64,000 bases of DNA, from assembly GCA_035221665.1 (NCBI GenBank), contig CM069146.1, forward strand, positions 29,574,001-29,638,000, in the 5' to 3' direction. The DNA is from Okamejei kenojei (lineage: Eukaryota). Below are positions 13,020 through 54,059 of this stretch, one piece after another. Position 1 is the stretch's first letter; the number at the start of each line of letters is the position of its first letter. Under the pieces are notes generated by a model, which was given only the letters and a program-made list of their open reading frames with translations, was not told where the DNA came from and searched no databases. A program made the translations under genes and the position numbers.

Positions 13020-13396
13020 ACCACAGTTTGCTCACCCTGCTCTACGAAAGATGTTGTTAAGCTGGAAAGTGTGCACAGAAGATTTACAAGGACATTTCCA
13101 GGACCTGAGGTCCTGAGCTATAAGGAGAAGTTGGGCAGGCTAGGACTGTATTCCTTGGAGTGAAGGAAGATGAGAGGTCATCTTATAGAGGTGGATAAGA
13201 TCATGAGGGCAATAGATAGGATAGATGCACAGAGTCTGTTACCCAGAGTAGGGGAATCAATAACCATATGACATAGGTTTCCCTCCCTGAGAGGGGAAAG
13301 ATCTAATTGGAATCTGAAGGGTAATATTCTTACACAGAATATTCAGGTTGTTATATGGAATGAGCTGCTGCGGGAGTTAGTTGAGGTAGAAACTAT
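13020..13396 (+). mobile_element. CR1 3' fragment, left part (interrupted by DIRS)
   Basis: CR1 C-terminal sequence ending gaggtagaaactataa; resumes at 18554 with caacatttaaaagacatttggacagg. Confidence 0.8.
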
Positions 13397-16300
13397 AATA
13401 GTAAGATTAAACGAGAACTTAGCAGTTCAAAGTTTGATTGTTATTTTATGAGGAGTAACGATGAGGGATTACATGAAGAAGCCCCGCCTGGCGCTTGATC
13501 GGCATACTTCAAAGCAGCGGCATGAAAAACACAGAACATAATGGCCTGAGTAAAATAGTAAGGCTCAACATAGATTTAGAACTACCAGATAATCATTTAT
13601 TTTATGAGGGTCGGGAGTGGAGGGCACGTAATCCCTCATCGTTACTCCTCAAAAAATAACGATCAAACTTCGAACTGGTAAGTTCTCGTTTAATCTTACT
13701 ATTTTATGTCGGAGTCACGTGAGTGACTATGTGAAGATTTTGAAGCTTCTGTGTTTTTTATGTCGTAGACTCATTCCATACGATACTCTGGCTCAACCAA
13801 CATAGTAATGAGAAATAACACATTTTTTTCCCCAAACATTGCCTCAGTTTATGTGATAAATTTTTTCCCATTATAAAAGACTGAAAATAACGCCCTTTTC
13901 ATTGAAAGGCAAATTTATCACCAAAATATCAATTGATAATATAATTTGATAGTATAAACAAAGCAACAATTACAGAGAACCCAACACTCCGTGTCCAATC
14001 CTGACACCATGACTGGTTCCTTGTAACTTTAATATTTATTTTACACCCTCCTGCGGCCTTGAATCTTTGCTCGAGCGGCCCATCCTGTGCCATTCCTGTG
14101 AATGTATCTACCTCCTTAATGGAGTGATTTTCCACATCTCAATGTCTAGTTCCACTGAGTGTTAAACATGTTTTAACCATCTAGAATATAATTATCTAGA
14201 CCCATCAGTATTTACTGATACTTAATGTGGTTTTTGTGTGTAATAAGTAGTGCTGTCTCGCCACCACAGAGACTCTTACCTACTTTAACATATTGAGTCA
14301 ATGTTGACCCACACACAATTTTTGGCCGGCAGGATATGCTTAATTTTTTACCTTGGTTCCAGCTCTTCCTGGTCTGCTTTGTTTGGTAAATTCATAAACA
14401 TATAAGATAATGTAATCTGTAGCCACATGCAATTATATAACGTAACATTTGCAATGTTTGCACTCCTATGCTGACACTAAAGTCATGAGCATTATCACTT
14501 TCAATGTTAATCTTTTGAACCATTGATAGAATTGGAGTCCATTGCCCAAGGCAAATCAGGACTATGCTGATCTCCCAACTTCTGTATTTNNNNNNNNNNN
14601 NNNNNNNNNNNNNNNNNNNNNNNNNNNNNNNNNNNNNNNNNNNNNNNNNNNNNNNNNNNNNNNNNNNNNNNNNNNNNNNNNNNNNNNNNNNNNNNNNNNN
14701 NNNNNNNNNNNNNNNNNNNNNNNNNNNNNNNNNNNNNNNNNNNNNNNNNNNNCTCCTCAAAAAATATATATATATCCCTTTTTCATATTGGGATATTACA
14801 AATACAAATGAGCCCGATAAATTCTTGGTCAGCAATTTGTCCTAATAGGACGATAAACACTATGAGCTCTATTAGAGCTCTATTATTGGCTCTATCACTT
14901 AGATGCTGAGAAAAAATGCAATCCACAAGGAACTCCCATATATCTAATATGATAAAATAACCTTTACTGTCTGCAAGAGGCTTCAAATTTCTTATAAACA
15001 AAATATTGTTTTTAAACTATTTCTCCAAATTGCAGGTATGACATTCCTTTTGTACATAATTGTTATATTGTTATATTAGTTAAAACATTCATAGATCTCT
15101 TTGACCATCAAATTGTTATAATGGTCTGGTCAAACCTGCAGATAACCAAATTCATATCTTCATGCCATGGATGAATTTGTACAACAATAAATTACTGCAA
15201 CTATGAGTCATCATAACTGGTTCAAATATCACTTTCAACATTAATGAGAACCATGAAGGTCCGGTTTGGGCCACCAAAGCGCCCCTGGCAGCGTCCTGCT
15301 ACATTTTCATCAGACACTGCCCAATCAGACAAAAATGAGGAATATAAAAGAACATCTTTCCTCATGTAATTTTAGCGAAATACATCCACCGCTCCTGCTC
15401 TCGGTTTTCCCACAAGATCATTTGAGAGATTGGTGATTTAATCTGGATACAACCAGATTAATGGTAAGTAATCCATATTACTGACAATGTTTTTCCCCTG
15501 ATTTGTTGTCTGCGATAATATTGTCTCTTCCTTAGAGATAAACAGCTGAACTAAAATATTTTTAGAATACGCCACATCTGGTTACCCAGACAATCACTTG
15601 ATAATGATTTTACTTGACTCATGTGATTGATATATGCCACAGCCGTGGTATTGTTCACCTGATTTGACATGTACACTTTCATAATAGAACAATAGGCATT
15701 TAATCCATAAAAAGCTCCTGATACTCCAATGATTAATACAAATGTTTGGACAAAAATTTCTTAGGACAATCCATTTGCAATTCCCTGGTGTTATTGTCCG
15801 TAGTCCCCTAAACAAGGGATGTATCAAATATTAATTTGATAAGAATAGATATTATACTTATCTTAACCCAAATAATCACAGAAGCTATCCATCATCCGAT
15901 AATACTTGCTTCAGCTTGTAACAGCTGCTAAGCTTATATATTTAAAGCAGCGTGTGGAACCTTTTCTATCCACCACTTTAATTCTGATAATATATCATTT
16001 GGTATTTGCATAGGCCTGTCAAAAAGGTCTGCATACTCTTATAATGCTTGTGTTTTCCCTTTTTTGGAGCTTTTTTACTCTTTACCTAAGCTCCTTCTCT
16101 GATGGAGAGACAACGTTTGTCAACAAAGCAATGAGACATTTCCCCCCCTCATATGGTGCTGAATTACCTAAACCCAGAATAGTAATTGAGGAATGTTTAT
16201 GAATGCCTAAAGCATAGTTTTTATTGGATGGGCCAGAACCCTTGCCCCTCAACAGGCTTGTAATTGCTGCACTAATTTGCAGCTGACTCCTGATCAACCT

Positions 16301-18553
16301 TCCAATTTAAAATGTGATCAAGATAAACCATGACCATGTCCTCATTAGTGCAAGTGCTGATCTTCTTATCAGTACAATTGTTGTTCCAGTAATTATGTGA
16401 ACAGCCTAGAACTGAATTTAATCCATTAGACAATGTCTTAACTTGCACAGCTGACCCATTTTAATTAATTTCAAGCACCTGTAATATGATAATAAATTGG
16501 TACTAAATACCAATCTTTTGAGTCTTATAGTAATGATTAACAATTTGTTAATAACAACTGTTTTTCAATGTTGAAGATGTCCATTTTAATAAAATGTTTT
16601 TACACTGTAAAACTGTATTTAAAATGATGTTTTGTATGGCTTTACCACCACATCTTCTTTTCCCTTGGGGAAATTTATAATACAAATTTACGTACCTCTT
16701 CTTTATTGGAGATATTTTGGGTGCAAACCTAAAATCAATTTTTAGGTTTTCCTATACAGGTGAACCAATTCCTTCTACAATTGTTTTTTTGTAGTCCTTT
16801 GTTATGCCATATCATTGATCATAACACACCTGTAATCTCCCATAATTGGAGATTTCATCAACTTCTTCTGTAACAAGTTTTTGCACCTCTTCAAATGTAC
16901 ATGAAGCCTTCTCTTCCCAATCATATGGGTTCACATAAGGCTGTGTTGGATAAATATTTATTTATCATACTCTTGCCTTTGTTTTGATCCATTATCAAAT
17001 GTTTACATTGGATCATAATTTTTGCCAAAGTTTAATGACCAATCCTTGGTCTTTCCTTTGTAATCAATGTCTTTGATTTATCCTGAGGCAGGTTTACTCC
17101 ATAATAATCAGGAGTTTAACATAACTTGATGTGTTTTGACCTGCAAATCTAAAGTGCAAANNNNNNNNNNNNNNNNNNNNNNNNNNNNNNNNNNNNNNNN
17201 NNNNNNNNNNNNNNNNNNNNNNNNNNNNNNNNNNNNNNNNNNNNNNNNNNNNNNNNNNNNNNNNNNNNNNNNNNNNNNNNNNNNNNNNNNNNNNNNNNNN
17301 NNNNNNNNNNNNNNNNNNNNNNNNNNNNNNNNGCTCCACAAACTGATGGCAATTTATCTTTTATTTAAAATGTTTTGGTTATTGCACAATGTTTTATTTG
17401 TTTTACATAAGTAGTGATGCCACGCACCAGCTTGAAAATACTTTGGAATTGTATTTCCTTATGTCTCCATATAATTGAGACATGGGTACCATAAACGGAT
17501 TCACCGTTTATACCTTAATAAAACATAAAAGTTTTATCAATAATTCTGCTGTTTCAACCATAACAGCTTTGTTGAGAGACCAATTAATTTTGGTTTCCAT
17601 GGTTACTTTCCATGGCCTCACTCCTTCATTCAGGTATCGTACCTAGTACACCTGTATATATATATTTGTGCTGTGGTGTACCTTAATAAAACATAAAAGT
17701 TTTATCAATAATTCTGCTGTTTCAACCATAACAGCTTTGGTGAGAGACCAATTAATTTTGGTTTCCATGGTTACTTTCCATGGCCTCACTCCTTCATTCA
17801 GGTATCGTACCTAGTACACCTGTATATATATATATTTGTGCTGTGGTGGGTACTTTATGACCAGCCACCACTATCAATGCACCTTTAGGGTCAGTTTTTT
17901 CATATTCTTTTACTGCCCTGGTTACTCCTGAGTTTTTCCTCAAGGAGACTACCTCCAAAACAATCCGAGGTAGATATTCCCACATCGATAAATCCCACCA
18001 TATATATTAATATATGGAAACCCCTCAGGGTCTGTTTTGGGGAATATTCTGGGCCTTTTAAACCCTTTGGTTGAATTTTTTATTTTTGGAGTCTTTCTCC
18101 ATTAATTTTAAGCCATCTAGAGTTTTTCCTTTTCTTTTTAACTTTTAAACTCCATTTTTCCTCATAGCCAAAAGTTTGTGGAGTCTCCCTAACGGTAATT
18201 TTAACGGCCACCAGTATCGGAACCGGCTCCGCACTTAATCTGCCGTCCCGATCGCTGAGTTTTCCCCTGGGACGCTTTTTAAACTCCGGAGTATTTTCTT
18301 TTCATTTTAACTTTTATTTTATTTTTTGCTTTCAAATTCCATTTCTTTTTAACTCCTGGTGGCTCTATACACCAGCCACGGAGTTCGGATATGCCCTGTA
18401 AGTATTTCAACTGCACTTACCAGCGGGCCCGTACCTACCGCTGTCGAGGAGCTGCCTCTGCAGCTCTTGCTCTGCCGTCAGCGTCGACGTAATGCCGATC
18501 AAGCGCCAGGCGGGGCTTCTTCACGTAGTCACTTACGTGACTCCGAAGTAAAA
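13397..18553 (-). mobile_element. DIRS1-like YR retrotransposon, family 2, decayed interior
   Basis: Left end (reverse complement ttttacttcggagtcacgtaagtgactacgtgaagaagccccgcc) at 18553; right ITR plus extension 13397-13506; internal complementary region ~13626-13737. Remnants of RT (KMDIF, LSNGL, MVYLDH), MTase end (HPWH..LVICRF) and YR (HSIKEVDT..AAGG). Confidence 0.88.
17511..17848. repeat. Tandem duplication, 168/170 bp
   Basis: 17511-17678 is repeated at 17679-17848 with one substitution and one extra TA. Confidence 0.9.
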
Positions 18554-19964: not shown

Positions 19965-20816
19965 GAGCCTTGCTGAAGCTTACTGTGCAGGTCACGCTAC
20001 CAGTTACTCCCAGCCTGGTTAGACAGGCTGCTCCTTAGGCCCCTTCTGCTCCTTCGGACCCTTAGCAGAGCTCACTGAATAGGCCGCGCCTGCCAGTACT
20101 GCAAGCCTGGTTCAACAGTCTGCTCTTGCGAGTCCGAACTTGACTCGACAGGCAGCTCCTGCGGGCCTTCTGCCTATTTTCGTAGCCTTGCTGGGACTGA
20201 CTGTGCAGAACGCGCTGCCAGTTTCTCCCAGCCTGGATCGACAGGCTGCTCCTTTGGCCAACTGCTCCTTCGGAGCCTCAGCGGGGCTGACTGGACAGGT
20301 CACGCCTGCCAGTACTGCAAGCCTGGTTCAACAGGCTGCTCTTGCGGGGTCAACTAGTGACTCCCGAATGCTCCTTTCCGGAGCTTCAACGGAGGTTGCT
20401 GTATGGGTCGCGCCCGTCAGCTTCTCCACGTTCTGCCACCTGCTCCCTTTCGGAGCCTTTACGGCGGTAGCTGTACGGGCCACTCCCGTCTGCTGCTCGA
20501 GTCCGGCCGCCTGCTCCCATTTGGAGCCTCTAATGGCGGTAGCTGCACGGGCCGCGCCTGTCATCTGCTTGAGTCCGGCCGCCTGCTCCCGTTCGGAGCC
20601 TCCACGGCAGCAGCTGTATGGGCCAGGCCCGTCAGTTTCTCCGGGCCCGCTGCACGTATTTTCGGAGCAGCGGCCCGCTCCTGAAAAAAAAAATTCTTAC
20701 CTGCCTGAGCAGTTTCGGACTGCTCTGAATCCCGCGCTATGCATCGACGTATTGACGCGCATGCGGGCTGGCGGATTCTTCACGTAGTCTCATCACGAGA
20801 CTTCGATATAAAATTG
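19965..20816 (-). mobile_element. DIRS1-like 5' fragment, family 3 (left ITR plus repetitive gag-like N-terminus)
   Basis: Minus strand starts ttttatatcgaagtctcgtgatgagactacgtgaagaatccgccagcccgcatgcgcg, similar to the other DIRS left ends; followed by CAG|GTAAG and GC-rich ~63-bp and ~217-bp repeats. Confidence 0.7.
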
Positions 20817-33433: not shown

Positions 33434-34060
33434 TCAAATAATTTGCTTTTTGCAATTACGAAAGCTTTAGGTTTATGTATGTCCCCACAAACTGTAATTA
33501 CAATTTTGGGATTCAGAGTTTCTTAACTTTCTCACATATGGAAGTGAGGAAAGGTCAATTCAGTTAGTCTTGTTTGATTGACTGGCTTTTTTCCTGAAAT
33601 TTTTCGATTGGATATCTCAAGGTTGAGGCTTGGAAATAGAGTTTGACTGCCATGAAAATAGAGTTTCAGAAAACTCATGTTTCCCTTTCAATTACATGAA
33701 TTTCACCACACTAATTATTACAAGGGCCTTTGGAAGCTAACCCTCTGGATGATCAGTTTAGCATTCATCACAATATTGTAATGTGATTTAAAACAAAGAC
33801 CACTTCAGACCAAATTATACAAACGTGTGAACATTATTAAACAAAGAGACACCCAGGTTCACCTGGCCAATGCCACACAGTTGCAATACCTTGCAAATCA
33901 ATATATGTGGTCTCCATCTCATTTGTACCCATGTGAGTCTTGAGTGAAGGTGGCATTTCTGACAAAATGTTACAGCTGATTTTACTTCGGAGTCACGTGA
34001 ATACCCCACCAGCACGCATGCGCGACCTGCCATTGGACCCTAGACAGCACCTTACGGAAG

Positions 34061-35095
34061 GTGTGGTCTGATGGTGGAAGCCACAGTGATATCGCAGGGC
34101 CTGGGGAAGTCGGCTTGTCCGCTGCACATAGCAGGGACGGTCGCATAGAGCGGTTGGAGCTCTTAGTGGAGCAACTCCTCCAGCGGGACAGGGACCGGGA
34201 AGAACGGGACTCGCGGGCATCCACAAGCCGCGCAAGGAGTCCTTTCAGTATCTCGTCTTCACCAGCCAGAAGTGCCAGCAGTTGCCCAGCCGCTGTATTT
34301 GAAGACGGCCCGGGACAGCCAGTGACCGCTGAGCCAGAGCATGAGGAGGATATGCTGGACGTGGTGGGCAGGTTTGCCACAACCACACAAACAGGGGAAC
34401 CCCTGCACCACAAACTGGCGGGCACCATTGATTACCTGACTACTCACCAACTCCAGAGACAGGTACTCAATGACACTATGGAGAAAATAAAGCCACCCGA
34501 GAACTGCATCAACCTCAGTGTTCCCCTGGTTAATGCTCAAATCTGGGGACACTTGAGCACGGCCACCAGGATGCAGGATGTCTGCCTCCAGCGTATCTTA
34601 AAGGTCCTCTCCACGGGTATAACGGCGTTTGCTAGGACCCTTGATGGGGATAATGTGTCCAGTGAACAACAAGATGCCCTGGCACTCCTATGCAACACCC
34701 AGTATGAGATCAACTGCCTGCGTAGGAGCTCCATTAAGCCCACACTCAACCCCAAATTCGCGGGGTTGTGCCATCCATCAACCGCTCCACTGCCTCATCA
34801 ACTGTTTGGAGATCTGTCCAAACAAGTGAAGGAACTAGACGAGGTGGCCAAAACAGCTGGCCTAATGAAACCTCCTACGACTAGACCTCACCCATACCAC
34901 CGGCAACAACCACACACAAACTGGAAACCGCGGCCGCCGGACAGGACACAAAGGGCCTATCCACCTCCACTTCCCCAAACACAACGGCCTTTTTTAGGAC
35001 AAGGCCAACAGCGGCCTGCATGGAAGATGCGGCCGCCATCCCGACAACCTCCACAACGTCCACCCAAAACGACATACGCCAGGAACCGTCGTTAA
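34061..35095 (+). pseudogene. DIRS gag-like ORF1, N-terminally truncated
   Basis: 344 aa matching the C-terminal part of ORF 47140..48942. Confidence 0.85.
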
Positions 35096-37024
35096 CCATG
35101 GAGGTAAGGGGGTCTGGTTCCTCTCAGACCGTAGCATCCTTTCCTGCACAAATTGGTGGGCGATTGCGGGCCTTTTTGGAAATATGGAACACTATCACCA
35201 CAGACGAGTTTATTTTACAAAGTGTTCAAGGTTATGTTATAGAATTCATTGGTGGTAAAAATCCCCCTACCCAGCATTCGCCTCATCGGAAATTTACACT
35301 ATCCCAAAAAGAGGTGGAAGCTGGACATGCTTAAATTATACAGCTAGCAGCAAAAGGGGTGATGGGAAAAACAACGCACGAACCCCTTGAGTTTGAGTCC
35401 AACATTTTCACCAGAATTAAAAAAGATGGGGGGTGTCGAATTATAATAGACCTAACTGAGCTGAACACGTTTGTACAATATACCCACTTCAAAATGGATA
35501 CCTTTGAAACAGCCAAGCAGATGCTTTACCCGGGGTACTTTATGGCATGCATCGATTTAAAAGATGCATACTATACAGTGCCCATCACTGAATCTCACAG
35601 AAAATTTCTAAAATTTGTCTGGAAGGAACAATTATGGGAATACAAAGCATTGCCCAATGGAATCACCACAGCCCTAGACTATTTACAAAATTAGTAAAAC
35701 CTATATTGGCTCTTCTCCGACAACAAAATTACATGGTCATGGCATATTTAGATGATATCCTAATAGTGGGACAGACCCTCCAATTGGCTACACGGGCAGT
35801 GACAGCAACTAAGGCTTTATTCGAGAAGCTGGGATTTGTAATCCATCCAGACAAGTCAAAATTGCACCCGTCACGGGTAATGGATTATTTGGGGTTCACC
35901 CTAGACACCACCTTAATGATGATCACCATCCCAACCAATAAAGCTACCGCTATAAAAGAAGAGTGCCACAGTCTTGCTTGCGCCAGGGTACCGACCATCC
36001 GGCAAACGGCAAAAGTAATAGGGAAATTGGTAGCTACATTCTCAGCTGCACAATTCGGACCGCTACATTACCAAAATTTACAAAGAACAAAGATCGCAGC
36101 ATTAAAAGCAAATGCTGGGCACTTTGATCAACCAGTCCGGTTACCACCAAAGGCTAGAACCGAGCTACAATGGTGGATTGACAATATTAGCGAGTGTCGC
36201 AGACCCATCATAGTAAGCAACCCATCCGTCGTGCTACAGACTGACGCAAGCGCACAAGGCTGGGGAGCAACTGATACTATGTCCAGTTGTGGTGGCAGAT
36301 GGGACTCTCGTGAGTCTACCTTCCTTCAGTCACACGGGATAAATTATATAGAAATGTTAGGGGCGTTTCATGGACTGCGGGCTTACTGTACTAACTCACG
36401 GGACTTACATGTCCGCCTCCAAATAGATAACACAACAGTGGTGGCTTACATCAATCATATGGGTGGTATCAGGTCGCTTTGTGATGAATTGGCAAAACAA
36501 TTTGGCACTGGTGCATCGAGAGGAATATTTGGATTACAGCGACCTATTTGCCACGGAAGCTTAATACAGTGGCAGACACCAGGTCACGAGTATTCACTGA
36601 CAACATCGAGTGGATGTTGAACCCCCAAATTTTTGGAGACATTATAGCTCACTACGGGACACCAGATATTGACCTTTTTGCGTCCAGGTTGAACCATCAG
36701 ATACGAACGTATGTGTCTTGGGAACCAGACCCTGGGGCAATAGCAATGGATGGGTTTTCTATCCATTGGGGGAAATGGTTTTGCTACGCATTTCCCCCAT
36801 TTTGCCTCATCAGTCGGGTATTGCAGAAAATTAAACTGGACTCTGCAACTGGCATATTGATCATTCCCGACTGGCCTACACAGCCATGGTAGTCGATGGT
36901 CCTTAAAATTTTGAAACGACCATGGATTTCGATTGGGAAACACTCCAAATTGATTACTCACCCCATTACGGGGGATAGTCATCCATGCCATGGTCACCTA
37001 AACTTGTTGGCCTGCAGGTTCTAA
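35020..37024 (+). pseudogene. DIRS pol (RT-RNaseH-adenine MTase-like), disrupted
   Basis: IDLKDAYY, LPNG, YLDD, TDASAQGWG, DNTTVVAYIN, DIDLFAS and YAFPPF; stops at 35332 and 36890 plus frameshifts. Confidence 0.9.
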
Positions 37025-37940
37025 AAAGACCACTCATCAAGGCGGGCATCTCACCACGAGCCATGGAACTCATCTCAGCATCATGCCGAGAATCAACTCG
37101 GAAGCAGTACCTCACGCAGATCAGGAAATGGGAGGCATTCTGCTCTCGTACCAACACGACTTCCAACACGGCAACTATCCCTGATGTCCTGGAATTCCTA
37201 GCTGGCCTACATTTCGATGATGGCCTTAGCTACAGTGCCATCAACAGCGCCAGGAGTGCACTATCCTGATACCTGGATATAGGTATAGGCTCAAACCACC
37301 TGGTGTCTAAACTCATGAGGGGAGTGTTCAACACCAACCCTCCACGACCCAGATACACCTTCACCTGGGATGTAGGGATCGTTCTGACCCTACTGAGGAG
37401 CTGGGCTCCAATGAATGAGTTACTACTCAAACAGCTCACCCTCAAAGTGGTGATGCTGATGACATTACAAACACTGCGGCTGGATAGCATGGTGGCCACC
37501 CCTAATCAAATAAATTTCTTTGTCCAGGACTTATTGAAGCAGCACAGGCCAGGGGCTCATGGGCTGCAGTTGGAGTTTCGGGCATACCCTGTAGATGCCA
37601 CCCTCTGCATAGTCACTATATCCGAATTACAAGAACCATCAGGAAGAAGGAGCAGGGGCTCCTCATCAGCCACAAACCTCCGCATCATCGGGTGACTGTA
37701 CAGACTATCGTCAGGTGGCTCAGGGTGGTGTTGGGTGCAGCAGGAGTTGCTACTAACATTTTAAAATCTCATTCCACTAGGGCTGCATTCACATCAGTGG
37801 CGAGGGCCATGGAGGTGCCCATGGACCACATCCTCGCCACCGCGGGCTGGGCCAGTGAAGAAACCTTCCAAAGGTTCTACAATAAGGCACTGGTCGCCCC
37901 CGCGACATTCGCAGAAGCTGTGCTGGGAGCCGCTCAGTGA
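36985..37940 (+). pseudogene. DIRS tyrosine recombinase, disrupted
   Basis: HSTR..AGW..FQRFY motifs; stop at 37267; 27-bp deletion removes ALTTAQRVQ, which includes the putative catalytic Arg. Confidence 0.9.
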
Positions 37941-40844
37941 ATGGCTGTCCCCGAATCAGGGGTTATTTGTTTGTTATTATTTGATTAATAAATTGTGTTA
38001 CTTTTTCAGCCAGTTTCGACTGAACTGCATTAACAGCCTTCCTCTATCAGAATTGCGGCAGTGTGATAGCAATAACGTTGTCCAGGGCGTGAAATCACAG
38101 AGCTTTGAAATCTTCACAAAGTCACTCACGTGACTCCGAAGTAAAATAGTAAGATTAAACGAGAACTTACCAAATTTGAAGGTTGATCTTTATTTTACGA
38201 GGAGTCGGGGTGAGGGATTTCGTGCCCCCCCCCGCTCCCACCCTCTATCATAAGGTCAACTGGGAAGTTCTACGTTCTTCATCTTACTATTTTCAGTCAT
38301 GGTGCATTCTGTGATTCCACACCGCTGCTTTGAAGGATGTCGCGCATGCGTGCTGGCGGGGTCTTCACGAAATCCCTCACCGCGACTCCTCGTAAAATAA
38401 AGATCAACCATCAAACTTGGTAAGTTCTCGTTTAATCTTACTATTTTAGTGAGGAAACCTGGGAATTTCTCACCCAATCCCACACCAGTGCTGTATTTGT
38501 ATTGTGATGGTATGACGTACAGGCACCTCTAAAAAGATAAATGTTATTATTTCATTTATTGGTCATATTACATGTTTCTTTATTATCACTGCACCATATC
38601 ATCCTGCGTCTGTTGTTGGGAAAATGCTGGAGTCTGTGGTCAAGAAAATCACCTGTGCCTTAATCAGTTTTTGTCGTAAATGTTGCAGTAATCCTGATAC
38701 CCATAAGAATAGGTTCCTTAAGTCTCACTGAAGAATGACCTGTCGTCATTGTACAAGCAGTCAGGTCAAGTCAAGTTTATTGTCATATGGTGTGGTGAGG
38801 TATATGGTACAATGAAAATCTTGCTTGCTTTTAGGTAGAGTGATGGGAAAGATACACAGTGCAGATTATAGTTCACAGCATTGTGTACCAATTCCAGAGA
38901 CAAGTCTAAGTTACACAATGAGGTAGAGGAGAATCAAACTATACCCTAGCTGTATCCGCAAAGGGCCTGTTCCACTTACGCGCCCTTTACAGGAGACTGC
39001 TGGCACCCGTGATAGGTCGACAAAATTTTCAATGTTGAAAATTCAGCGGCGACCAGAAAGACGCTACGACTCTTTGGAGACCTCTCCTGACCATAGTCAG
39101 GGCTGCCAACATTGGGTAAGAGTTTGGAGTGAGAAATTTCGAGAGACCTAGCTCGAGTGAGCATACGACAGGGTGGGGTATGAGAGGAGGATGTCCCCCC
39201 TCCCATTGGTACGCAACTTTTGCATTTTTCAGCTTAAAATTGGTGCATACTGTAGCAAGTCTTGTAATTTACACGTGAATGCAATATATATGCTTTAAAT
39301 TAGATTAACTATGAATAAGGTTAGACTAAATTACATTCCCAATTACATTCCACAGTAGAGCCCAGGCTCTGATCAACATATCTGGCGCTAACATAAAGTC
39401 CCATATCTAACAGGTGCTTATCTAATGCAGTAAACATTTATGTTGCACTTCACAGACCAAATAATCTATAACAAAATTTGCTACATCCATTGGCTTCCTT
39501 GTTATCTAACATGCTAGTTACTTTGTCAAAGAAGTCATCAATTGGTTGAACACAATTTCTCATCCATAAAATTATACTCAATCAGTTGTATGTATGCTGT
39601 TACCATTTCTTTCATTTTCCTAACAAACTCCTGAAGTAATTTTCACCCCCAATATTTTCAGTATTTTGTTGTCTCTCAGCTGGAACTTTTCCGAAATGCA
39701 AAGTCCAATAACTATATATTTAAGCAATATTATTCTATTAAATGTGACCTTGAGAGTACGTTATATTTTCTGTGGTATTCATAACACAACTGATAAAAAA
39801 TACCTTTGTTTTGATTGCACCTACCAACATGCATACATTATATTACAGTTAATATATACATTTTTGTTCCATTGCTCCCCATTCCCAATTACTTTTACAT
39901 TGAAGTTATTGAAATCCAAGTAAAATTTAAATGGCATCATAAAAATCAAACCTCCGGAATGGATGATATTCATTACGTGGTTGGTTGAGGTCAGTATCAG
40001 CACAATTGCTATATTAAACTTTGAATCTTTAGATGTCCTGGTTCAAGCTAAAACTAAAGACAAATAATAATCTGCTCACACATTCCCCAGCAAGTATCTC
40101 TGTCATTCCTTTAAAATATTCCCCTTCTTTGAACAAGCTCTTAAATATCGCATCTGAATTAGTTTCCATCTGATTACACTCCTTGAGGATGTTCATCTAC
40201 GTATTCAATTAATAAAACAATGAGATTGGGGACTTTTCTATTCAACCTGTCAAAGGAATTTGGGGGGAGGGGGGAGGTTAGAAATAGTCAAACATAACAG
40301 TTGAGTGTTAAATGACAATAGTGCTACCATCCCAATATTTAACTGAAGGAAATAATGGGTTATCAGGGCTGTATGTTGTGACAGACAGCCTGATACCTTG
40401 CATGTCATTTTAATATTACACTTATCCCATCGCCCTGGATATTCCAGATTAATAATTTAAGGTTTTGTCAACTAATTACAAATCAGGCTAATTACAAATC
40501 AATAACATTAGCCAACTCCGAAACATTTAGCGCTGAGCATTGGGATCCAGACATCATGGACAACTGGCCTCAGTTCCCCGCTCACATCTGGCAGTGTTCT
40601 CTGTCTGAACCAGGGATCGTGGAGCGTTTTTGAAAGTGGGGAGGCTGAGCGATCACTGATCACTGGCCTTGGGGGTACCCGGTGAGGGAGTGGAGCAACT
40701 GAGTGGGGAGAGGGTGTGGAAGTGGGGTGTCCCCTCCTCCCAGGGTAGGGACTTTTTGAAATTTGATGTATTAAAATCATGTTTTAGTGCATTGTAGAAG
40801 TATGATTTCAATGTTTTTTGTATGAAGTATTTTTAAGAGGTAAC

Positions 40845-46162: not shown

Positions 46163-46977
46163 ATAGAAACATAGAAACATAGAAAATAGATGCAGGAGGA
46201 GGCCATCGAGCCAGCACCTCCATTCATTGTGATCATGGCTGATCGTCCCCAATCAATAACCAGTGCCTGCCTTCTCCCCATATCTCTTGATTCCACTAGC
46301 CCCTAGAGCTTTATCTAACTCTCTCTTAAATCCATCCAGTGCCCTTAAATCCTCCACTGCCCTCTGTGGCAGGGAATTCCACAAATTCACAACTCTCTGG
46401 GTGAAAAAGTTTTTTCTCACCGCAGTCTTAAATGGCTTCCCCTTTATTCTCAGACTGTGGCCCCTGGTTCTGGACTCGCCCAACATTGGGAACATTTTTC
46501 TTGCATCTAGCTTGTCCAGTTCTTTAATAATTGTATATTTTTCTATAAGATATCCCCTCATCCTTCTAAACTCCAGTGAATACAAGCCTAGTCTTTTCAA
46601 TCTTTCTTCATATGACAGTCCCTCCATCCCAGGGATCAATTTCGTGAACCTACGCTGCACTGCCTCAATCATAAGGATGTCCTTCCTCAAATTAGGAGAC
46701 CAATACTGTACACAATACTCCAGATGTGGTCTCTACAGAGCCCCATACAACTGCAGAAGAACCTCTTTTCTCCTATACTGAAATCCTCTTGTTATGAAGG
46801 CCAATTCCATTAGCTTTCTTCACTGCCTGCTGTACCTGCACACCAACTTTCAGTGACTGATGTACAAGGACGCCCAGGTTTTGCTGCACCTCCCCCTTAT
46901 CTAACCTCACCCCATTGAGATAATAATCTGCCCCCTTGTTTTTGCCGCCAAAATGGATAACCTCACATTTATCTATA
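46163..46977 (-). mobile_element. Young CR1 LINE, 3' part (interrupted by DIRS)
   Basis: ORF 46253..46690 is the CR1 C-terminus; continues at 52446. Confidence 0.92.
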
Positions 46978-47139
46978 TTTTACTTCGGAGTCACGTGAGT
47001 GACCGTGAAGACCCCGCCAGCACGCATGCGCGACATATCGTCGCGCGCATTTGCTAGACAAGCTGGGGGGGTGAGTGCGCTCTCTCCTCCAGCTCCTTCA
47101 TAAGACCGGCAGGTAAGTGCTTACCTTTACTCCCACAGG

Positions 47140-48942
47140 ATGGACAAGGGCAAGCGGAAGGCGACTCTCTCGAGGAGCCGTGCTGCTTCGACCAGCCAAC
47201 GGCCTTTGTCCCCGGAGCTGCAAGCACCACCGGCAGCTTCGGGACGTGTGGGGGCAAGAATGCGGAAGTCGGGCGCTCCTGCTACTCTAACGCCCGACTC
47301 ATCACCTGAATGGTTCACTGCACTGGAGCTGGAGACTGGTGATCCAGACTTCGAGCCCCCTTCCCCCAAGAAAAGAGGGGGAAAACAGGTACGTGGGAAG
47401 GAGCCTCGCTCAGCGACCTCACCCCGAGTGCCAGCAGACCCAAGGGGACTGGGCCGGGGGACAGCTGCACTACAGGGGAGCCCTGCAGCTGTGCACCACC
47501 ACGTACCACTGCCAGGGAGATCTGCCGTAGAGCAGTCTGGCAGATCTACTGCTGCGTCGAGCAGACCTGTAGGAGCAGGTGCTACCGGCAAAACACCCCG
47601 TCAGGCTGCGGTCAAGGGCGGTGGTGGCAGCAGTAGACGGTCGGTCAGCTTAGCTCTGGGAGCGGCCGACCATGCGCCTCCACGCCGAATATTGGGCGAC
47701 AGTGGAGGTAAGCCTGCACGGACTCCGGGGAGCCAGGTTCCGGGGGCCGGCGCCGATCCAACTCACCTGCCTTCGTATCAGACAGGTGGGCCGCCACAGT
47801 CTGGAAGAAGACAGACTAGCGGAGAGTCCGTGCGGGAGTCGTATGAGCCTACTCGGGCGGTAGGCCACGACGACCTGCCATTGGACCCTAGACAGCACCT
47901 TATGGAGGTGTGGTCCGATGGTGGAAGCCCCAGTGATATCGCAGGGCCTGGGGAAGTCGGCTTGTCCGCTGCACATAGCAGGGATGGTCGCATAGAGCGG
48001 TTGGAGCTCTTAGTGGAGCAACTCCTCCAGCAGGACAGAGACCGGGAAGAACGGGACTCACGGGCATCCACAAGCCGCGCAAGGAGTCCTCTCAGTATCT
48101 CGTCTTCACCGGCCAGAAGTGCCAGCAGTTGCCGAGCCGCTGTATTTGAAGACGACCCGGGACAGCTAGTGACCACTGAGCCAGAGCATGAGGAGGATAT
48201 GCTGGACGTGGTGGGCAAGTTTGCCACAACCACACAAACAGGGGAACCCCTGCACCACAAACTGGCGGGCACCATTGATTACCTGACTACTCACCAACTC
48301 CAGAGTCAGGTACTCAATGACACTATGGAGAAAATAAAGCCACCCAAGAGCTGCATCAACCTCAGTGTTCCCCTGGTTAATGCTCAAATCTGGGGACACT
48401 TGAGCACGGCCACCAGGATGCAGGATGTCCGCCTCCAGCGTATCTTAAAGGTCCTCTCCACGGGTATAATGGCGTTTGCTAGGACCCTTGACGGGGATAA
48501 TGTGTCCAGTGAACAACAAGATGCCCTGGCACTCCTATGCAACGCCCAGTATGAGATCAACTGCCTGCGTAAGAGCTCCATTAAGCCCACACTCAACCCC
48601 AAATTCGCGGGGTTGTGCCGTCCATCAACCGCTCCACCGCCTCATCAACTGTTTGGAGATCTGTCCAAACAAGTGAAGGAACTAGACGAGGAGGCCAAAA
48701 CAGCTGGCCTAATGAAACCTCCTACGGCCAGACCTCACCCATACCACCGGCAACAACCACACACTATCTGGAAACCGTGGCCGCCGGACAGGACACAAAG
48801 GACCTATCCACCTCCACTTCCCCAAACACAACGGCCTTTTTTAGGACAAGGTCAACAGCGGCCTGCATGGAAGATGCGGCCGCCATCCCGACAACCTCCA
48901 CAACGTCCACCCAAAACGACATACGCCAGGAACCGTCGTTAA
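47140..48942 (+). CDS. DIRS gag-like ORF1, open 600 aa
   Basis: Uninterrupted ORF in the first position of the element; disordered basic N-terminus, helical core, P/R-rich tail with PFL. Confidence 0.85.
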   Translation: MDKGKRKATLSRSRAASTSQRPLSPELQAPPAASGRVGARMRKSGAPATLTPDSSPEWFTALELETGDPDFEPPSPKKRGGKQVRGKEPRSATSPRVPADPRGLGRGTAALQGSPAAVHHHVPLPGRSAVEQSGRSTAASSRPVGAGATGKTPRQAAVKGGGGSSRRSVSLALGAADHAPPRRILGDSGGKPARTPGSQVPGAGADPTHLPSYQTGGPPQSGRRQTSGESVRESYEPTRAVGHDDLPLDPRQHLMEVWSDGGSPSDIAGPGEVGLSAAHSRDGRIERLELLVEQLLQQDRDREERDSRASTSRARSPLSISSSPARSASSCRAAVFEDDPGQLVTTEPEHEEDMLDVVGKFATTTQTGEPLHHKLAGTIDYLTTHQLQSQVLNDTMEKIKPPKSCINLSVPLVNAQIWGHLSTATRMQDVRLQRILKVLSTGIMAFARTLDGDNVSSEQQDALALLCNAQYEINCLRKSSIKPTLNPKFAGLCRPSTAPPPHQLFGDLSKQVKELDEEAKTAGLMKPPTARPHPYHRQQPHTIWKPWPPDRTQRTYPPPLPQTQRPFLGQGQQRPAWKMRPPSRQPPQRPPKTTYARNRR

Positions 48943-50960
48943 CCATGGAGGTAAGGGGGCCTGGTTCCTCTCAGACCGTAGCATCCCTTCCTGCACAAAT
49001 TGGTGGGCGATTGCGGGCCTTTTTGGGAATATGGAACACTATCACTACAGATGAGTTTATTTTACAACGTGTTCAAGGCTATGTTATAGAATTCATTGGC
49101 AATAAAAATCCCCCTACACAGCATTCGCCTCATCGGAAATTTACATGATCCCAAAAAGAGGTGGAAGCAGGACATGCTGAAATTATACGGCTAGCAGCAA
49201 AAGGGGTGATGGGAAAAACAACGCACGAACCCCTTGAGTTTGTGTCCAACATTTTCACCAGAGTTAAAAAAGATGTGGGGTGTCGGATTATTATAGACCT
49301 AACTGAGCTGAACACTTTTGTACAATATACCCACTTCAAAATGGATACCTTTGAAACAGCCAAGCAGATGCTTTACCCGGGGTACTTTATGGCATGCATC
49401 GATTTAAAAGATGCATACTATACGGTGCCCATCACTGAATCTCACAGGAAATTTCTAAAATTTGTCTGGAAGGAACAATTATGGGAATACAAAGCATTGC
49501 CCAATGGAATCACCACAGCCCCTAGGCTGTTTACAAAATTAGTAAAGCGTATATTAGCTCTTCTCCGACAACAAAATTACATGGTTATGGCATATTTAGA
49601 TGATATCCTAATAGTGGGTCAGACCCTCCAATTGGCTACATGGGCAGTGACTGCAACTAAGGCTTTATTCGAGAAGCTGGGATTTGTAATCCATCCAGAC
49701 AAGTCAAAATTGCACCCGGTACGGGTTATGGATTATTTGGGGTTCACCATAGACACCAACTTAATGATGATTACCATCCCAACCAATAAAGCTAACTGCT
49801 GTAAAAGAAGAGTGCCACAGTCTTGCTTGCGCCAGGGTACCGACCATCCGGCAAACAGCAAAAGTAATAGGGAAATTGGTAGCTCCATTCCCAGCTGCAC
49901 AATTCGGACCGCTACACTACCAAAATTTACAAAGAACAAAGATCGCAGCATTAAAAGCAAATGCTGGGCACTTTGAACGACCAATCCGGTTACCACCAAA
50001 GGCTAGAACTTTTTGGAAGTTCCTCTTCCGGTGGACCCCAAATTGATTACTCACCCCATTACGGGGGATGAGGTTCTAAACAGACCACTCATCAAGGCGG
50101 GCATCTCATAGGTGGATTGACGCGAGTGTCGCAGACCCATCATAGTAAGCAACCCATCTGTCGTGCTACAAATTGACGCAAGCGCACAAGGCTGGGGAGC
50201 AACTGATACTATGTCCAGTTGTGGTGGCAGATGGGACTCTCGTGAGTCTACCTTCCTTCAGTCATACGGGATAAATTATATAGAAATGCTAGGGGCATTT
50301 CATGGACTGCGGGCTTACTGTACTAACTCACGGGACTTACATGTCCGCCTCCAAATAGATAACACAACAGTGGTGGCTTACATCAATCATATGGGTGGTA
50401 TCAGGTCGCTATCTTGTGATGAATTGGCAAACACAATTTGGCACTGGTGCATGGAGAGGAATATTTGGATTACAGCGACCTATTTGCCACGGAAGCTTAA
50501 TACAGTGGCAGACATCAGGTCACGTGTATTCACTGACAACATCGAGTGGATGTTGAACCCCCAAATTTTTGGAGACATTATAGCTCACTACGGGACACCA
50601 GATATTGACCTTTTTGCGTCCAGGTTGAACCATCAGATACCAACGTATGTGTCTTGGGAACCAGACCTTGGGGCAATAGCAATGGATGCGTTTTCTATCC
50701 ATTGGGGGAAATGGTTTTGCTACGTATTTCCCCCATTTTGCCTCATCAGTCGGGTATTGCAGAAAATTAAACTGGACTCTGCAACTGGCATATTGATCAT
50801 TCCCGACTGGCCTACACAGCCATGGTACCCGATGGTCCTTAAAATTTTGAAACAACCATGGATTTCGATTGGGAAACACCCCAAATTGATTACTCACCCC
50901 ATTACGGGGGATAGTCATCCATGCCATGGTCACCTAAACTTGTTGGCCTGCAGGTTCTAA
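48867..50960 (+). pseudogene. DIRS pol (RT-RNaseH-adenine MTase-like), disrupted
   Basis: DLKDAYY, YLDD, DAS..GWG, DNTT, DLFAS and FPPF; nonsense at ~49146, +1 frameshift at ~49795, insertion 50010-50110. Confidence 0.92.
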
Positions 50961-51916
50961 AAAGACCACTCATCAAGGCGGGCATCTCACCACGAGCCAT
51001 GGAACTCATCTCAGCATCATGCCGAGAATCAACTTGGAAGCAGTACCTCACGCAGATCAGGAAGTGGGAGGCATTCTGTGCTTGTACCAACACGACTTCC
51101 AACACGGCAATTATCCCTGATGTCCTGGAATTCCTAGCTGGCCTCCATTTCGATGCTGGCCTTAGCTACAGTGCCATCAGCAGCGCCAGGAGTGCACTGT
51201 CCTCATACCTGGATATAGGTATAGGCTCAAACCACCTGGTGTCTAAACTCATGACGGGAGTGTTCAACACCAACCCTCCACGACCCAGATACACCTTCAC
51301 CTGGGATGTAGGGATTGTTCTGACCCAACTGAGGAGCTGGGCTCCAATGAATGAGTTACCACTCAAGCAGCTCACCTCAAAGTGGTGATGCTGATGGCAC
51401 TGACTACAGCCCAACGAGTCCAGACATTACAAACACTGCGGCTGGATAGCATGGTGGCCACCCCTGATCAAATAAATTTCTTTGTCCAGGATTTATTGAA
51501 GCAGCACAGGCCAGGGGCTTCATGGGCTGCAGTTGGAGTTTCGGGCATACCCTGTAGATGCCACTCTCTGCATAGTCACCCATCTCCACCACTATATCCG
51601 AATTACAAGAACCATCAGGAAGAAGGAGCAGGGGCTCCTCATCAGCCACAAACCTCCGCATCATCGGGTGACTGTACAGACTATCGCCAGGTGGCTCAGG
51701 GTGGTGTTGGATGCAGCAGGAGTTGCTACTAACATTTTAAAATCTCATTCCACTAGGGCTGCATCCACATCAGTGGCGAGGACCATGGAGGTGCCCATGG
51801 ACCACATCCTCGCCACTGCAGGCTGGGCCAGTGAAGAAACCTTTCAAAGGTTCTACAATAAGCCACTGGTCGCCCCCGCGACATTTGCAGAAGCTGTGCT
51901 GGGAGCCGCTCAGTGA
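50921..51916 (+). pseudogene. DIRS tyrosine recombinase, two frameshifts
   Basis: TAQR (R), HSTR (HxxR), AGW and FQRFY (Y) catalytic pattern, spread over ORFs 50921, 51382 and 51533. Confidence 0.92.
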
Positions 51917-52445
51917 ATGTCTGTCCCCGAATCAGGGGTTATTTGTTTGTTATTATTTGATTAATAAATTGTATTACTTTTTCAGCCAGTTTCGACTGAA
52001 CTGCATTAACAGCCTTCCTCTATCAGAATTGCGGCAGTGTGATAGCATGGACGTTGTCCAGGGCGAGAAATCACAGAGCTTTGAAATCTTCACGAAGTCA
52101 CTCACGTGACTCCGAAGTAAAATAGTAAGATTAAACGAGAACTTACCGAGTTTGAAGGTTGATCTTTATTTTACGAGGAGTCGCGGTGAGGGATTTTGTG
52201 CCCCCCGCTCCCACCCTCTATCGTAAGGTCAACTCGGAAGTTCTACGTTCTTCATCTTACTATTTTCAGTCATGGTGCGTTCTGTGATTCCACACCGCTG
52301 CTTTGAAGGATGTCGCGCATGCGTGCTGGCGGGGTCTTCACGAAATCCCTCACCGCGACTCCTCGTAAAATAAAGATCAACCTTCAAACTTGGTAAGTTC
52401 TCGTTTAATCCTACTATTATAAGTTCTCGTTTAATCTTACTATTA

Positions 52446-53012
52446 TACTGCATCTGCCACGCATCTGCCCACTCACTCAACCTGTCCAGGTCACCCTGCA
52501 ACCTCCAAACATCCTCTTCACAGTTCACACTGCCACCCAGCTTTGTGTCATCCGCAAAGTTGCTAGTGTTGCTCCTAATTCCCTCTTCCAAATCATTAAT
52601 ATATATGGTAAACAGTTGCGACCCCATCACCGAGCCTTGCGGCACTCCACTCGCCACTGCCTGCCATTCTGAAAAGGACCCGTTCACTCCTACTCTTTGC
52701 TTCCTATCTGCCAACCAAATTTCTATCCATGGCAACACCCTACACTCAATACCATGTGCTCTAATTTTAGTCTCCTGTGTGGGACCTTATCAAAGGCTTT
52801 CTGAAAGTCTAGATACACTGCATCCACTGGCACCCCTTCATCCATTTTACTTGTCACATCCTCACAAAATTTCAGAAGATTAGTCAAGCATGATTTCCCT
52901 TTCATAAATCCATGTTGACTTGGACTAATCCTTTTACTGCTATCCAAATGCCCCATTATTACCTCTTTAATAATTGACTCCAGCATCTTTCCCACCACCG
53001 AAGTCAGGCTAA
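52446..53012 (-). mobile_element. Young CR1 LINE, RT part
   Basis: SQHGFMKGKSCLTNL, YLDFQKAFDKVPH, GVPQGSV and FADDTKLGG. Confidence 0.92.
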
Positions 53013-54059
53013 CATTCATTTGAGAAAACAATTCTGCCACAAATGAGGAGGTAAAGGAAAGTTGTGTAACTCACTTTCACCCCTCACTTAATGCTATTCT
53101 AATAAATGCAATTATTTCTTAAACTCAATTTCTATTTATTTATTTGGTTTTGAAAGCTATATTTATTTTTTAATTATTTACAACAATTTCAAAAGCTACC
53201 TCAGCAATAGAACACCACAGACCACCTCTTGCACTGCCATGCACTTGTTTTCCAATAATGTTTTGTTTATTATGGTTTTGTTTTTGAGTATTTTTCTTTT
53301 ACTGTCTAATTTGCAGTATCTGTAAGTTATTGCATGACTATGTACCTGTGATATTGCTGTGAAGATTTTCATTGTTCCTGCACATCACTGTTCTTGTACA
53401 TATGATGATGAACATGCCTTTACTTGATTGCTATAGACAAATGTCTGAATAGCAGAGACACTTAAACACTGTTGCAAAACCTTAAACATTTTGACAGGGT
53501 CAGGCCTCTACCCTTGGTTCTACTTTCTGTGCAAGACTGTCAAGTGTTGCCAAGAAGGGGCTGAGGAGGACACGTCCTGGGCCTCTGCAGAGGGCTCACT
53601 GTCCATCATTGGCTTCAATTTGCACATCTAGGTTATGCCTTCAGGCTGCAAGTCTGTGCAGCAGTTGAATCCACTGTGACTTGGCTCAGTTTAACTTCAA
53701 TATTACACAAAAGCAATTTATTCACAGCCACCACCTATCTACTATTGACATAATCACCATCTGATCTAAATAGAGAGTCAGTGTATTATCAGTAAATATC
53801 AAATGCCGTGTCCTTGTCTTCTTCGGCACTTCTTTGGGATCGAGCATGACTTACTGCCACTTGTTTTCTGTGGGCACTGAGGAGTTGATGAGACCAAAGT
53901 GGCACCAGCAGTCTTTTATACAAGGTGGGGCAAGAGGTTGTTTGTGAGAGGGCACACTTCACCTACTATTTACTCCGGGCTTCTGTGTTCGTGGACACAA
54001 GGTTCTCCATACTATCCTGAATGCTCCTCCACATTCTGCTCCATCTCACAGCAACATAT

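Follow-up and report, generated by a model that had tools for sequence, protein, structure and literature searches.

Background

The closest described relatives of the locus studied here are the DIRS1-like elements. In the excerpts of Piednoel et al. 2011 (PMC3266345) and of the Dictyostelium DIRS-1 paper (PMC7192593) used in this work, these have inverted terminal repeats, internal complementary regions, an NTT-type terminus and three genes in the order gag, RT-RH-MT (reverse transcriptase, RNase H and methyltransferase, here called pol) and tyrosine recombinase (YR). The element at positions 46978-52421 of a 64,000-nt stretch of the Okamejei kenojei genome (assembly GCA_035221665.1, contig CM069146.1, positions 29,574,001 to 29,638,000, forward strand; the whole stretch is called the window below) is a DIRS1-like retrotransposon of this known kind and shares the repeats, the complementary regions, the terminus and the gene order, its RNase H and methyltransferase being candidate regions only. 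It differs in that the open reading frames (ORFs) of described DIRS overlap, whereas those of its pol and YR have hardly any overlap and the latter is without a conserved start. DIRS elements are widespread in animals, and DIRS1-like ones integrate at a trinucleotide with no target-site duplication. The descriptions of their three ORFs are, in the excerpts, silent on how pol and the recombinase get translated. We describe a predicted intron which would remove pol and join its first codons to the recombinase, and a candidate slippery site near the end of gag, by which one primary transcript could give three proteins.

The two papers above and PMC5633606 report ORF overlap but, in the parts consulted, no splicing or frameshifting for expression; the splicing treated in PMC7192593 concerns a reporter intron. 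The literature searched, which also took in excerpts of PMC9341512, 10.64898/2026.05.21.726589, PMC8547959, PMC5941688, PMC6681497, PMC4157794 and PMC12006353, with some subscription reviews and Goodwin and Poulter 2001 outside its scope, holds no report of either process in DIRS expression. The novelty of the expression plan is provisional. Introns are reportedly mentioned for some tyrosine-recombinase elements in the early Goodwin and Poulter papers, and spliced ORFs may be annotated in entries of repeat databases.

A predicted intron removing pol

An earlier note on this DNA had proposed that unspliced RNA gives gag, a single splice gives pol and a double splice gives YR. Its sites were all found at the positions named: the leader donor D1, CAG/GTAAGT, at 47113 (a slash marks the junction), the acceptor A1, CCTTTTTTAG/G, at 48843-48844, the donor D2, ATGGAG/GTAAGG, at 48951, and the acceptor A2, CCTGCAG/GTT, at 50952-50953 with CACCTAAAC at 50931. 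A frame check placed the first ATG after A1 (48867) in the pol frame.

All sites were ranked among the 251 sense GT and 348 AG sites of the element and the 7009 GT and 8091 AG sites of the window. D1 is first and D2 second of the 251, with 1 and 14 GT sites of the window scoring as high. A2 is eighth and A1 seventeenth of the 348, and here 132 and 376 AG sites of the window score as high. The scores of D1 and D2 are well above chance, that of A2 is moderate and that of A1 is by itself not remarkable. D2 has phase 0 in the pol frame (phase 2 in the gag frame) and A2 has phase 0 in the YR frame. The D2-A2 join is therefore in frame with the recombinase, as the note had said, and nearly all of pol is removed, its stop (50958-50960) lying just past A2. 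The predicted U2 intron 48951-50953 has GT-AG ends, a consensus-like donor, branch point and acceptor and a productive phase. It is the best-supported part of the scheme and is probably used.

Conservation outside the window was judged from peptide traces in proteins. A phase-0 donor AG/GTRAG translates as [EQK]-V-[SR], a pattern that was picked after viewing the sequences, though it is the one D2 predicts. Among 120 listed full-length pol relatives 84 could be anchored; in 32 of them the reverse transcriptase (RT) start is preceded by 20 residues or more, and 30 of these were non-redundant. Ten of the 30 extensions contain the pattern, placed 9-25 aa upstream of the RT start, where shuffles lead one to expect 1.75 (0 of 3000 reach 10). 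The control [EQK]V[NKTIM] shows no excess there (3 of 30, 4.3 expected). Upstream of YR the donor pattern is not enriched either (1 of 102, 7.5 expected). The context of the gag stop was ruled out as the origin of the E/Q/K-V motif: S or R comes next in 10 of 25 cases against a 13% background, and N, K, T, I or M in 4 of 25 against 32%. Relative P0160 begins M-E-V at 20 aa before GGRL (19 in the window) and ends R-F-stop, as does the pol of the window.

On the acceptor side 152 YR proteins were aligned, giving 102 in-register relatives with upstream sequence and 126 in-register relatives for counts of Met and Gln. Residues G10 and S12, which lie between A2 and the internal Met16, are conserved in 73 of the 102 each. 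Met16 itself occurs in 1 of the 126 and a Met at +1 to +9 in 5 of them; P0001 and P0002 have Met16, both being outside that set. Because conserved residues precede Met16 and an own Met is rare, YR generally needs a start from upstream. These counts bear on a rival scheme, a single splice from D1 to A2 with YR read from the internal AUG 50999 and D2 unused. It would supply D1 with a partner, and AUG 50999 is the first after A2, in a GCCATGG context; the rarity of Met16 outside P0001 and P0002, the conserved G-I-S upstream of it and the enrichment of the D2 motif nevertheless leave this scheme very improbable. As further starts for YR we rejected ATG 50921, which is in frame in both copies of the element but is Leu in P0001 and has no conserved upstream Met as a counterpart, and a conserved genomic Met at YR -2, whose 26 occurrences in 102 are by our estimate about what chance gives from the overlapping pol Ala codon.

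Two unrelated gene models, P0006 (E/VLK) and P0179 (M/VVC), enter YR at exactly the A2 residue. The former, a sea-urchin model, has the same N-terminus as a protein labelled Diadema antillarum, and its join is approached in the -1 frame, five codons beyond the stop of gag; the latter is from Holothuria. The Arg of the pol-terminal C-R, which holds the AG of A2, is found in 29 of the 31 motif-bearing closest pols against 12 of 51 others. A second, decayed DIRS family in the window retains CTGCAGGTT at A2, and its acceptor TCTGCAG/GTT (minus strand, AG 15137-15136) was correctly called in the earlier note. So were the A1, D2 and A2 motifs of a sibling copy (copy B, the element itself being copy A), which start at 34988, 35098 and 37011; this is weak evidence, since the copies differ by only 4% over 4461 aligned bases (the 73 bases of the signal windows are free of mismatches). 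The peptide traces suggest that the predicted expression plan is conserved at the protein level between the window family and echinoderm and other relatives.

Conservation in other DIRS families, which the note had named as a check, has evidence on both sides. The donor trace in 10 of 30 relatives and the A2 of family 2 and of two gene models speak for it, but Gln at YR -1, as a phase-0 CAG would give, is present in 20 of 126 relatives only, and the top 15 show no excess of it (3 of 15). From this and from the distribution of the pol-terminal Arg, A2 at the position of the window appears limited to a clade, and other DIRS would need another acceptor. Arg stands at YR +3 in 79 of 102 relatives (among P0004-P0152) and Trp is nearly absent there (3). 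In other DIRS the acceptor may be a phase-2 TCAG within the S-G that ends pol. Such a TCAG/G would match the phase that D2 has in the gag frame, producing a direct Gag-YR fusion in those clades.

The note had also suggested looking for genomic copies lacking exactly the predicted introns. None was found in the window: no insertion or deletion between copies A and B matches an intron, and the 5' loss in B and an insertion in A (about 50011-50121) end elsewhere. That insertion (50011-50121, +) contains copies of 50878-50912 and of 50952-50989, the latter beginning at the AG of A2; it looks like a templated repair insertion and has no match to the D2-A2 junction.

Entry into pol

Site A1 coincides with a T TTT TTA heptamer (48837-48843); gag contains just one other X XXY YYZ heptamer in phase. 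This and the top-ranked acceptor A0 at 47138, treated below, are points beyond the earlier note. Pol lies in the -1 frame relative to gag, and the -1 frame is open from 48585 and runs into pol; an open -1 frame into the downstream gene is also present in P0167, P0182, P0192 and P0242. The gag frame reads R-P-F-L-G in 4 of 5 gag matches, and all four matches showing the motif have F-L-G, never a CAG-type form. Seven pol proteins extend 45 residues or more upstream; the -1 reading, FF[RS], is found in 4 of them, and in P0006. For the sea-urchin element the two frames together force CCT TTT TTA GGC, 1 of 48 synonymous P-F-L choices.

Of the four pol relatives showing the site, three (P0167, P0182 and P0192) have no Met between the heptamer and the RT start, while P0242 has one; the first Met of P0167 and P0182 is deep in RT, and P0006 has none before its recombinase join. 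Splicing followed by the first AUG can thus not make pol in these three relatives unless a leader exon brings an AUG. Since A1 is a poor acceptor that coincides with U UUU UUA in the gag phase, and three of four relatives have no pol-frame Met before RT, a -1 ribosomal frameshift is at least as likely as splicing as the way into pol. We place it somewhat above, the two not being exclusive.

The splicing route corresponds to the strategy of foamy viruses: D1 to A1 would yield pol from AUG 48867 or 48945 (or from a leader AUG elsewhere), D2 to A2 would be added for YR, and no frameshift would occur. D1, as the best of 7009 donors in the window and with leader donors in three families, needs a partner, and A1 is followed by two pol-frame AUGs in the window family (one also in P0160 and P0242). 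A suboptimal acceptor inside gag is what the pol mRNA of foamy virus uses, according to the excerpt of PMC3705302. The rank of A1 (17 of 348), the conserved F-L-G and the missing Met residues tell against this, as do the one phase and the exact slippery codons kept in the sea-urchin element. The leaders speak both ways: in family 3 the leader ATGs 20762 and 20744 are open and in phase 2, like A1, but the leader ATG of family 1 is in phase 0 and its frame stops before D1, and family 2 has none. We regard this scheme as doubtful, with D1-A1 splicing to pol possible in window family 1, where its two AUGs are available.

Another way into pol is open to the window family, namely termination of gag at TAA 48940-48942 and restart at AUG 48945, which would give pol from unspliced RNA and Met-Glu-YR from D2-A2 spliced RNA, the TTTTTTAG site being incidental. 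This pol-frame start, in an ACCATGG context, follows the gag stop after a gap of just 2 nt, and M-E-V is shared with P0160. The sea-urchin element, however, has no Met between gag stop and join (VTALPKE), P0167 and P0182 offer no Met until deep in RT, and the fixed heptamer codons are left unexplained; as the explanation for pol and YR together restart is improbable.

The leader donor and its neighbouring acceptor

Each of the three DIRS families of the window has its best leader donor in non-coding DNA, at a distance of 112-135 nt from the left end and with 10.7-12.9 bits. As a top leader donor recurs in three families, D1 is probably functional. An AG follows the leader donor after 20-26 nt in each family. 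It is the element's top acceptor, A0, in family 1 (47138), has 13.1 bits in family 3 and is weak in family 2, and the spacings are 26, 25 and 20 nt in families 1, 2 and 3 (47113-47139, +; 18420-18396, -; 20700-20681, -). Donor and AG are also neighbours at 48951-48974 (+; AG 24 nt past D2) and 38420-38449 (+). A close acceptor-like AG (20-30 nt) is present by 7 of 50 strong donors of the window, and 5 of the 7 pairs are in DIRS copies.

The minimum length of an animal intron is about 65-70 nt, and D1-A0 is therefore too short to be one. The pair may be a mutual-exclusion switch, a U-rich enhancer of the donor or an entry for read-through transcripts. D1 is predicted to pair with complementary bases just downstream in families 1 and 2. 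Occlusion of D1 by this hairpin was rejected, the fold being no more stable than shuffles (173/200 and 102/200 for the two families). The family-1 leader (47071-47112, +) holds a second donor at 47071 and an acceptor at 47092. Joining donor 47071 to A0 would make a 68-nt intron that removes D1; this is possible in family 1 only and was dropped as a general arrangement, since families 2 and 3 have no corresponding donor at a suitable spacing.

Some side observations concern the same region. The left ends of the three families (46981-47003, +; 18550-18525, -; 20810-20785, -) carry a short hairpin-like inverted repeat of the GTCAC..GTGAC type, the loop of which is donor-like in families 1 and 2. 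The leader of family 3 (20762-20701, -) contains a 20-codon open frame with phase 2 at the donor and a stop inside the donor. The interval from A0 to D2 (47139-48950, +; 1812 nt) holds exactly the gag ORF, and back-splicing would give a gag circle, which is pure speculation.

Proposed expression plan

We propose that a fraction of ribosomes shifts by -1 into the pol frame at the T TTT TTA close to the gag end, the AUG at 48945 giving the window family a second entry. Removal of D2-A2 would take out almost all of pol and join the pol frame to the recombinase in phase 0. The unspliced RNA would be the genome and the source of Gag and, via the -1 shift, of Gag-Pol, while the spliced RNA would give Gag plus either Gag-YR, again via the -1 shift, or Met-Glu-YR, begun at AUG 48945. 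Splicing from D1 to A1 may add Gag-free messages for pol and YR. DIRS is not known to have a protease. The plan makes exact predictions, namely three junctions and one 75-nt signal.

This model of frameshift and intron swap, with any splice, frameshift or product predicted from motifs, phases, ranks and peptide traces, is tentative and falls a little short of probable when taken as a whole. A broader form is unlikely: that throughout an animal DIRS clade one frameshift and one intron swap give Gag, Gag-Pol and Gag-recombinase, that UUUUUUAG is both slippery site and weak acceptor for the leader donor, and that the too-close donor-acceptor pair is a switch protecting full-length RNA. Of the three-protein splicing scheme of the earlier note, two parts were strengthened, the leader donor by its presence in three families and the pol-removing intron by traces in distant relatives; its D1-A1 route to pol came out weakened.

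Several points weigh against the model. The splice-site scores come from approximate matrices. The donor motif is absent from 20 of the 30 pol extensions (many of them short), Gln at YR -1 is scarce, and family 2 is too decayed for A1 or D2 to be judged, its alignment being uninformative. Both P0006 and P0179 are predicted gene models, and P0006 holds a second, probably spurious intron. At the heptamer, P0153 has no FLG and FF[RS] is missing from P0164, P0227, P0270 and P0231. A stimulatory structure usually begins 5-9 nt downstream of a slippery heptamer; the hairpin at 48858-48883 is 14 nt away, and its z of -2.2 is matched by 7 of 200 shuffles that fold as well. The sea-urchin element is without such a hairpin (mean z -1.05). 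Furthermore, TTTTTTAG/G also fits an acceptor, which the family-3 leader ATGs are in phase to join, and nothing in the model requires a partner for D1.

The opposite reading is that chance and coding constraint produced the motifs, and that internal promoters or other means serve to express DIRS genes. Acceptor scores like those of A1 and A2 are indeed common, and C-R and P-F-L-G could be protein motifs. This reading has to pass over the two top ranks of D1 and D2, the leader donors in non-coding DNA of three families, a donor peptide that is enriched when its control is not, the matching phases of D2 and A2, and the entry residue shared by two gene models, and it is improbable.

Features of the element and other DIRS DNA

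The coordinates of all features are collected in Table 1. At the left end of copy A, 46976-47003 pairs with the internal complementary region and 47004-47036 with the right repeat, the latter pair (47004-47036 and 52310-52342) being 100% complementary. Within the internal complementary regions 52097-52124 matches the left end and 52118-52200 the right end. Homologs of the gag-like ORF1 cover its C-terminal part at 41-61% identity. In a Pfam scan the RT domain of pol matched PF00078 (E 1.1e-18) and RNase H matched PF13456 only at a weak E of 0.01, with AFPP/FPP and P-W type motifs visible. The scan gave no methyltransferase match in this pol; some homologs have PF05869 or PF12237. For YR, PF13495 was found in copy B (E 4e-6) and PF00589 was below cut-off (E 0.0014); an HSTR motif is seen, and homologs carry PF00589.

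Table 1. Positions of the DIRS features and candidate expression signals in the window
Feature	Position	Strand	Remarks
DIRS1-like retrotransposon, copy A (family 1)	46978..52421	+	gag open; pol and YR broken; decayed
Left inverted terminal repeat, copy A	46978..47036	+	
D1, leader splice donor, CAG/GTAAGT	47110..47118	+	first intron base 47113; best-scoring donor of the window
A0, acceptor	47124..47139	+	AG at 47138; strongest of the element; 26 nt after D1, 1 nt before gag ATG
gag-like ORF1, copy A	47140..48942	+	open, 600 aa
A1, first acceptor of the earlier note, CCTTTTTTAG/G, and T TTT TTA heptamer	48835..48845	+	heptamer 48837-48843, AG 48843-48844; heptamer in gag phase, pol in -1 frame
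GC-rich hairpin, candidate frameshift stimulator	48858..48883	+	14 nt past heptamer; contains AUG 48867
pol, copy A (RT, RNase H-like, methyltransferase-like region)	48945..50960	+	broken; 48951-50953 is the predicted 2003-nt intron
pol-frame ATG 48945 and donor D2, ATGGAG/GTAAGG	48945..48956	+	first intron base 48951; ATG 2 nt past gag stop
Branch-point-like CACCTAAAC (50931) and acceptor A2, CCTGCAG/GTT	50931..50954	+	AG 50952-50953; phase 0 in YR frame
YR ORF, copy A	50954..51916	+	broken; internal ATG 50999 after conserved G-I-S motif
Internal complementary regions, copy A	52097..52200	+	
Right inverted terminal repeat and extension, copy A	52310..52421	+	
Sibling copy B	33981..38448	+	96% identical to copy A; without leader donor and 5' gag; keeps A1/heptamer, D2 (35104), A2 (37016-37017)
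Family-2 DIRS copy	13390..18553	-	decayed; leader donor 18420 (best of 265 in copy), weak A0-like AG 18396, A2 15136 (rank 2/313)
Third DIRS family, left end	20675..20813	-	two phase-2 leader ATGs; donor 20700 followed after 20 nt by a strong acceptor, 20681

A 26-nt tandem duplication is present at the right end of copy A (52394-52447, +), a 168-nt one in family 2 (17511-17848) and a 72-nt tandem array in the gag region of family 3 (20369-20642). An RT fragment flanks copy A (52726-53070, -; PF00078, E 1.2e-8) and is probably part of a LINE (long interspersed nuclear element) into which copy A inserted. No host gene was found, a Pfam scan of 79 of the 126 long open frames of the window giving one RT fragment only.

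Comparison with known systems

If the plan is true, the recombinase is delivered as a fusion from spliced RNA, and consensus annotations that start YR at an internal Met are wrong. It would also touch on the mammalian genes in which DIRS gag was captured twice, TMPO/LAP2alpha and ZNF451, for which Abascal et al. infer an own alternative splice acceptor (PMC4495291, in excerpt). A0, directly before gag, fits that acceptor, and a built-in acceptor at this place would account for it in both domestications; a clade-wide plan would explain why DIRS gag was repeatedly captured as a host exon. The link to LAP2alpha is a lead only; the gag of the window gave no Pfam match.

The comparisons that follow rest on excerpts of the papers cited. 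In the Ty1/copia element EVD of Arabidopsis a conserved alternative splice sets the ratio of retrotransposon proteins (PMC5580714), as is proposed here; splicing of EVD yields a short gag-only RNA, whereas in the window it would swap one enzyme gene for another. Like D1-A1, the pol mRNA of foamy viruses (Spumaretrovirinae) is formed from a leader donor before gag and a suboptimal acceptor in gag before the pol start (PMC3705302). Unlike there, the acceptor of the window coincides with a slippery heptamer, several relatives are without a pol AUG, and a second intron would remove pol to express the recombinase. The gag-pol frameshift of HIV-1 takes place at U UUU UUA, which is followed by a conserved Gly codon (PMC4373837). 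The window likewise has U UUU UUA in gag phase with a Gly codon next, a candidate downstream hairpin and pol at -1. It differs from HIV-1 in that the hairpin is 14 nt away, that the sea-urchin relative has none, and that a Gag-YR from spliced RNA would depend on this shift as well. Splicing and frameshifting are each known from retroviruses; their combination in DIRS would be new.

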